The notes beneath the pieces were generated by a model that ran no database searches, was not told the DNA's origin, and saw nothing but the letters and a program-made list of their open reading frames with translations. From Centroscyllium fabricii (lineage: Eukaryota): DNA of 64,000 bases. The position numbers and the translations under genes are program-made. The stretch spans positions 63,736,001 through 63,800,000 of the forward strand of contig JBNRSN020000017.1 of the NCBI GenBank assembly GCA_051313645.2, in the 5' to 3' direction. This document shows, piece after piece, positions 57,586-58,846 of the stretch. How positions within the stretch are numbered: the stretch's first letter is position 1; each line of letters opens with the position of its first letter.

Positions 57586-57929
57586 CACTGATTTTTCTTA
57601 TTCCAGGCTTCTTTATTTGGTTATCCGCTGATTTCAGCTGTGCTCAGCAGTTTGTTGCCAGGTCAAAGCATTTGGCTTCACCTTTGGTACAAGTAGTTAA
57701 AGAAGATGCTGTAAGCCTGCAAATTATTGCATAAGCTATAGATAAATATGTATAGCTTATGCAACAATATGTATAGCTTATGCAACAATAATTTGCAGGC
57801 TTACAACATCTTCTTTAACTACTTGTACCAAAGGTGAAGCCAAATGCTTTGACCTGGCAACAAACTGCTGTGCACAGCTGAAGTCAGTGGATAACCAAAT
57901 AAGGAAGCCTAGAATAAGAGAAATCAATG
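57586..57929. repeat. Long inverted repeat (about 155-bp arms) with a 21-bp tandem duplication at the apex
   Basis: 57586-57740 is the reverse complement of the right arm ending at 57929, with roughly 8 differences; AATATGTATAGCTTATGCAAC repeated at 57745 and 57766. Confidence 0.95.
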
Positions 57930-58846
57930 TAAAGGGTATGATCAGTAAGTTCGCTGATGACACGAAAATTGGTGTGGTGGTGGATAGCGAGGAGGGAAGC
58001 CTCAGGCTACAGGACGATATAAATGGGTTGGTCAGATGGGCGGAGTAGTGGCAAATGGAATTTAACCCTGAAAAGTGTGAGGTGGTGCATTTTGGAAAGA
58101 CTAAAGGCAAGGGAATACACAATGAATGGCAAGACTCTAGGAAAGACAGAGGATCAGAGGGACCTTGGTGTGCATGTACATCGATCCCTGAAGGCAGCAG
58201 GGTAGGTGGATAAGGTGGTTAAAAAGGCATATGGGATACTTGCCTTCATTAGCCGAGGCATAGAATATAAGAGCAGGGAGGTTATGATGGAGCTGTACAA
58301 AACACTGGTGAGGCCACAGCTGGAATACTGTGTGCAGTTTTGGTCGCCACACTAGGAAGGATGTGATTGCCTTGGAGAGGGTGCAGAGGAGATTCACCAG
58401 GATGTTACCTGGGCTGGAGAGTTTCAGCTATGAAAGACTGGACAGGCTGGGGTTATTTTCCTTGGAGCAGAGAAGGCTGAGGGGGGACCTGATTGAGGTG
58501 TACAAAATTGAGGGCATAGATAGGGTAGATAGGAACTTTTTCCCTTGGTAGAGGGGTCAATAACAAGGGGGCATAGTTACAAGGTAAGGGGCGGGAGGTT
58601 TAGAGGGGATTTGAGGAAGAACTTTTTCACCCAGAGGGTGGTTGGAATCTGGAACTCCTGCCTGAAAGGGTGGTGGAGGCAGGAACCCTCAACATTCAAG
58701 AAGCATTTAGATGAGCACTTAAAGTGTCATAGCATACACGCTATGGACCAAATGCAGGAAAATGGGATTAGAGTAGACTGGGCTCGATGGCCGGCATAGA
58801 TGCGATGGGCCTCTTTCTGTGCTGTAAAACTCTGACTCTATGACTG
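57925..58846 (+). mobile_element. CR1 LINE 3' fragment
   Basis: Starts at [28 protein letters not shown]; ends actctgactctatgact. Confidence 0.92.

Follow-up and report, generated by a model that had tools for sequence, protein, structure and literature searches.

A mirror copy of intron flank at the 5' end of a truncated CR1-type element in a shark genome, most likely a repair scar of its insertion

How does an intron come to hold an inverted copy of its own sequence, fused to the broken 5' end of a retrotransposon? The window analysed here (64,000 nucleotides of Centroscyllium fabricii, contig JBNRSN020000017.1, positions 63,736,001 to 63,800,000) raises this question at a locus where an earlier note had described a fold-back duplication of unique flank joined to a truncated CR1. 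The 5'-end joining of non-LTR retrotransposons is still debated, and foldback junctions are known from a few somatic L1 and engineered R2 events. We conclude that the mirror copy is most likely a repair scar of the CR1 insertion, a rare outcome already known for human L1; what is new is that it is fixed in the germline and concerns another family of elements, namely a CR1-type LINE with its SINE. The names CR1, HE1 and HER1 for elements of the window are putative labels, in part taken over from the earlier note. HE1 and HER1 are listed for sharks and rays (PMC3747384).

Structure and ancestry of the two arms

Fold-back and CR1 lie in intron 56144-60043 of a MYH10-like gene, between an upstream exon (56020-56143, plus strand; coiled-coil reading frame, AG/GT borders) and a downstream exon (60044-60252, plus strand, with its borders) that matched Myosin_tail_1 and, as best sequence match in the PDB, Myosin-10 (E 1e-27). 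When 148 of the 282 open frames were scanned, exons of the window matched Pfam Myosin_head and Myosin_tail_1, in this order and on the plus strand. Exons of this non-muscle myosin II heavy chain gene, from the head to the tail end, occupy 1043-63397 (plus strand).

The left arm, X (57586-57740, plus strand), is native intron flank, its ancestral state being shown up to 57729. It is followed by a hairpin loop of 10 nt (57741-57750), reduced to 2 nt if one G:G mismatch is tolerated, and by the right arm (57751-57926, minus strand), an inverted X fused to the CR1, which reaches 57929 with one mismatch. Over the outer 144 bp the arms differed at 8 sites, an identity of 94.4% that agrees with the 95% or so noted earlier, and their innermost 14 bp were identical. 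Three additional bases were present in the right arm where the inner arm steps to the outer arm. The 21-nt unit 57745-57765 recurred exactly at 57766-57786 with AATA on both borders, an exact tandem duplication which, with its 4-nt border repeat, spans 57745-57790 (plus strand). Arms, loop and duplication were thus as first described. A source of 57733-57750 was found neither in the window between 55 and 62 kb nor in five CR1 loci, the best match being 10 nt long.

Palindromic repeats are abundant in this genome, 263 of 302 sampled palindromes being multi-copy, which speaks for X being a multi-copy palindromic MITE; the palindrome might also be an assembly artefact. X, however, had two matches in the 7.2 Gb genome, and these were the two arms of this one locus, whereas a true palindromic repeat, taken as positive control in the same genome search, gave 1544 candidates. 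The arms differ at 8 sites, two other species have one copy in orthologous context, and short reads from the same species gave a 158-nt contig (run X2, which may belong to the same study as the assembly) that runs through the loop and the 21-nt duplication and changes strand. The MITE, which the earlier note had named as one of the findings that would overturn its reading, is barely credible against these data, and so is an artefact.

Contigs of organism C, from two runs that belong to two studies, and of organism G aligned to the flank up to 57729 and continued 1757, 3172 and 3955 nt beyond it (runs X11, X7 and X17). Their depth over X was one contig, i.e. single copy, and among the pieces listed for these three runs there was no second, inverted piece of X, so that the right arm lacks a counterpart there, as the earlier note had expected of an empty site. 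At 57588 organism C carried T and organism G carried C, as in the window; at 57585 neither species differed from the window. At 57595 and 57612 the relatives agreed with the right arm and at 57604 they did not differ from the left arm, which means that both arms mutated after copying. Because all three alignments stop at 57729, the sequences fit a native flank that would end soon after this position, perhaps at TGCAT, the three extra right-arm bases then being ancestral. The relatives would, further, lack the CR1, and both the target duplication and the bases used for priming are presumed. Priming on a native TATA, as proposed earlier, may be wrong, since the relatives cease to match at 57729, before the loop is reached.

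The junction with the CR1 fragment

The CR1-type LINE (57926-58849, plus strand) is 5'-truncated and retains the end of the RT domain, the 3' region and a microsatellite tail, with stops and frameshifts. It adjoins the right arm without a gap, the end of the arm being CR1 base 57926. Sequence upstream of this breakpoint differed in 29 of 29 fetched paralogs (from the best 40 of 3431 first-look candidates scored, at 95-96%), with divergence starting at exactly that base. One paralog, L015, carried an RVT_1 domain (E 1e-25) in frame across the breakpoint; Pfam returned no RT match for the window CR1's own five pieces. Truncated 5' ends and tails were present in the 29 paralogs. Microhomology between right arm and CR1 amounted to 1 nt with certainty and 4 nt at most; the AATGT overlap that had been claimed would require two left-arm mismatches and is given up here. 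Twin-priming inversion as in L1 was rejected since the inverted segment is host flank and not element RNA.

TGCAT at 57728-57732 (plus strand), with a second copy at 58850-58854, may be the upstream copy of a target-site duplication, a weak candidate, since three 5-mers match between the two ends, this one included, which is no more than chance would give. Target duplications of at least 5 bp were found in 13 of 106 CR1 copies against 10.6 after shuffling, which is little excess.

The CR1 differed from the majority base of its paralogs at 26 of 903 positions (2.9%), and the arms from each other at 8 of 144 (5.6%), where 5.8% would be expected for an age equal to that of the CR1. Arm divergence was therefore twice the CR1's own, as it should be if arms and CR1 are about the same age; the comparison, suggested in the earlier note, is approximate as it rests on 8 arm differences. 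This imprecision leaves some room for separate events, in which the inverted copy arose by a short-range replication template switch or by break repair at a later time, a CR1 already in place being cut back, or the CR1 entered an existing hairpin. That the arm finishes at the first base of the CR1 speaks against separate events.

Fold-backs at other insertions

The second case put forward in the earlier note, at 29932-29970 (minus strand), proved real. The SINE at this place is full-length (29617-29933, minus strand), sits inside an older CR1, has at its 5' end arms of 17 bp with a 5-nt loop, and is bounded by the target duplication AAAGC at 29947-29951 and 29612-29616. The fold sets in precisely where this 5-bp duplication of the target stops, with a GC stem of 2 bp and the 5-nt loop.

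Recurrence was assessed in 313 sequences (1.9 Mb) made up of 120 evenly spread 10-kb stretches, loci of young CR1 and SINE copies, and the window. The scan for palindromes with loops of up to 60 nt found 329, among them the 302 that passed the complexity filter; 25 were left after those with both arms multi-copy had been dropped and overlaps merged, 23 without the two window cases. They were compared with 584 called 5' ends and 397 called 3' ends of CR1 and SINE copies, some of which are fragment edges. Three of the 23 locus-specific palindromes ended within 10 nt of a CR1 or SINE 5' end, against 0.17 expected from within-locus shuffling (P = 0.00085, the palindrome filters having been picked after the data were seen), all three coming from loci fetched around young copies and none from the 1.2 Mb random sample. 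At 3' ends the count was 0 of 23, with 0.12 expected. The proposed recurrence thus holds in its preference for 5' over 3' ends, but two cases per 64 kb overstate a rate that we put at about 0.5% of called 5' ends.

A junction-anchored count without the uniqueness filter gave no excess (CR1, 3 of 235 against 6 of 705 shifted anchors, at score 12); its shifted anchors landed in multi-copy palindromes and in the arms themselves. Among palindromes with a score of at least 20 that were locus-specific after the genome search, three of four adjoined a CR1 or SINE 5' end.

These counts also bear on separate events. It is in their favour that 20 of the 23 locus-specific palindromes, mostly short ones, had no called CR1 or SINE end beside them. 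The enrichment was confined to 5' ends, however, while a later rearrangement would have no 5' preference, and the three in four among the higher-scoring palindromes point the same way. We consider separate events decidedly improbable, and hold with good confidence that the mirror copy was made during CR1 integration.

The three counted cases differ in size and setting. L319 is a 111-bp palindrome at a CR1 in a local satellite, which is inverted only beside the CR1 and resumes its direct orientation after the element; L242 is a perfect 40-bp palindrome at a full-length SINE, at a single locus; L176 is a palindrome of 13 bp. The satellite at L319:1930-2258 and downstream on C711 is locus-specific, has a 30-bp unit, extends over several kb and is interrupted by the CR1 and a SINE. 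The 7-nt loop of the 40-bp fold-back (L242:1455-1461) resembles the first bases of the SINE itself, as if the end had briefly copied cDNA before folding back.

Several further palindromes were seen outside the count of three in 23. L202 appeared by eye to be another 5' fold-back. Also by eye, a truncated element that belongs to a third family has a perfect 19-bp fold-back of target DNA at its 5' end (L193:3045-3093), which suggests that the fold-back route extends beyond CR1 and its SINE. A short element of yet another family, truncated at its 5' end, carries in front of it an inverted copy of its initial 14 bases (L241:60-91); this looks, by eye, like self snap-back of cDNA, as in R2. A perfect palindrome with 21-bp arms and a 7-nt loop (L109:5727-5775) had no called CR1 or SINE end adjoining it. 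L113:7543-8140 is a multi-copy element (1544 candidates) inside an old CR1, and the palindrome at its centre has arms of about 150 bp around a 2-nt loop; it was rejected as a candidate for being multi-copy and is nevertheless counted among the 23. Also rejected were L170, whose palindrome recurs in 7-8 other sampled sequences, L011 and L012, which share an identical 24-mer at two loci and are likely a transposon end, and L186, a microsatellite.

Proposed route, known parallels and consequences

The course that we favour, with some reserve as to its details, is that the upstream target end snapped back, copied about 155-180 nt of flank and joined the truncated cDNA. The CR1 endonuclease would nick the bottom strand and prime reverse transcription; a second nick and 5' resection would leave the upstream top strand as a 3' overhang, whose end, perhaps with a few added bases, would prime on itself and copy the flank backwards. 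A single slip during this copying would give the 21-nt duplication. Once freed, the new end would pair with 1-4 nt of the cDNA, and the junction would be completed by second-strand synthesis. The likely enzyme would be an end-joining polymerase of the host, similar to Pol theta, a guess by analogy with its snap-back synthesis (Kent et al. 2016, PMC4912351). Going by the available text of that study, switching of Pol theta between untemplated, cis snap-back and trans synthesis would yield loop, inverted copy and slip; its examples, however, belong to general break repair, and 155 bp is long by comparison. The product is proposed to be a neutral intronic scar, fixed in the lineage, the locus being without sign of function.

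The 3' end of the truncated cDNA could instead have invaded the flank some 155 bp short of the nick, been extended in the direction of the nick and then joined the target end. As to which strand carried out the copying, the final sequence is identical for this course and for snap-back of the target end. Snap-back junctions of R2 are read in the accessible text of PMC11371274 as cDNA-primed, on cDNA or, less often, on nearby target DNA, and L241 resembles a cDNA self-copy, so that cDNA ends do prime in this genome. Invasion, on the other hand, could use a homology of only 1-4 nt, on the strand that resection would remove, and the loops observed were all 5-11 nt, as self-priming predicts. We judge invasion by the cDNA unlikely and keep to snap-back of the target end.

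The closest parallel is found in human L1. Nam et al. 2023 (PMC10191854) described, in the text available, foldback inversions of 52-220 bp 5' of somatic L1 insertions, in 0.3% of insertions and in a further 0.1% combined with internal inversion, and ascribed them to extra DNA synthesis during resolution. Common to both systems is an inverted copy of upstream target DNA that separates the flank from the 5' end of the element; the size in the window is 155-180 bp, and 0.3-0.4% of L1 insertions compare with the rate of about 0.5% of 5' ends estimated here (PMC10191854). Since structure, size range and frequency had thus been published for L1, and snap-back for R2 (PMC11371274), the mechanism is not undescribed, as the earlier note had supposed. 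Unlike these somatic L1 events, as far as the accessible text describes them, the shark case is germline-fixed and old (about 3% per lineage), concerns a CR1-type LINE and a SINE, has target duplications that are short or absent, and includes a slippage duplication (PMC10191854). As in Nam-type foldbacks, an inverted target duplicate stands directly 5' of the element in the window, and the flank is native and single-copy (to 57729).

For fold-backs of this type in CR1 or in sharks, a literature search that left most subscription papers outside its reach found no report. The source paper for flank-templated extra nucleotides in zebrafish ZfL2 is reportedly Kajikawa 2012. Yamaguchi et al. 2014 recorded such 5' extra nucleotides in inserts of ZfL2, of the CR1/L2 group (PMC4245944, PMC4760211). 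A related LINE group, target duplications of about 5 bp, an annealing pathway and flank-copied bases are shared with our case; the portions of these sources at hand, on chicken and human cell lines, give neither orientation nor lengths of at least 100 bp (PMC4245944, PMC4760211). Snap-back 5' junctions of R2-protein (PRINT) insertions (Zhang et al. 2024, PMC11371274) have in common with the window an opposite-strand copy of cDNA or nearby target DNA; they differ, in the text accessible, in being engineered and site-specific in cultured cells, mostly cDNA-templated and read as cDNA-primed. Target-site inversions, inverted duplications and templated DNA at L1 insertions have been ascribed to processing of the reciprocal (upstream) end (PMC11702581). 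Local inversions, inverted duplications and templated DNA are thus shared with the window, whereas that study, in its available text, concerns induced L1 in cell lines with main foldbacks of chromosome scale (PMC11702581).

The similar rate and size in CR1 and SINE copies suggest a general outcome of host repair and not a peculiarity of L1. The 227 segments counted in 1.2 Mb extrapolate to about 1 million copies in the genome, so that scanning all of it might supply hundreds to thousands of cases for statistics on the mechanism. It is conceivable, although we lean against it, that germline integration of CR1 and SINE copies has produced fixed, locus-specific fold-backs of 15-200 bp by the thousand in this genome, with snap-back 5' joining as a main source of unique palindromes and intronic dsRNA in sharks. 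If so, these would form a natural archive for which end primes and for how 5' junctions of non-LTR elements are closed in the germline.

The proposal of a long hairpin in the pre-mRNA stands as a possibility, because the fold-back site is intronic and RNA folding of the region predicted -269.9 kcal/mol (z = -39, 0 of 100 shuffles equal). Such a hairpin might be a substrate of ADAR or Dicer, as the earlier note had suggested. None of the RNA datasets among those listed contained a match to the flank sequence. The same intron holds a short tandem duplication of about 30 bp (56760-56822) and, just downstream of the CR1, a MITE-like element (59088-59719), whose terminal inverted repeats measure 58 bp (93%) and which has numerous TTCGT/ACGAA motifs. 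Elsewhere in the window, a tandem array with a period near 58-60 bp (49034-49679) is spanned by an open frame of 276 codons.
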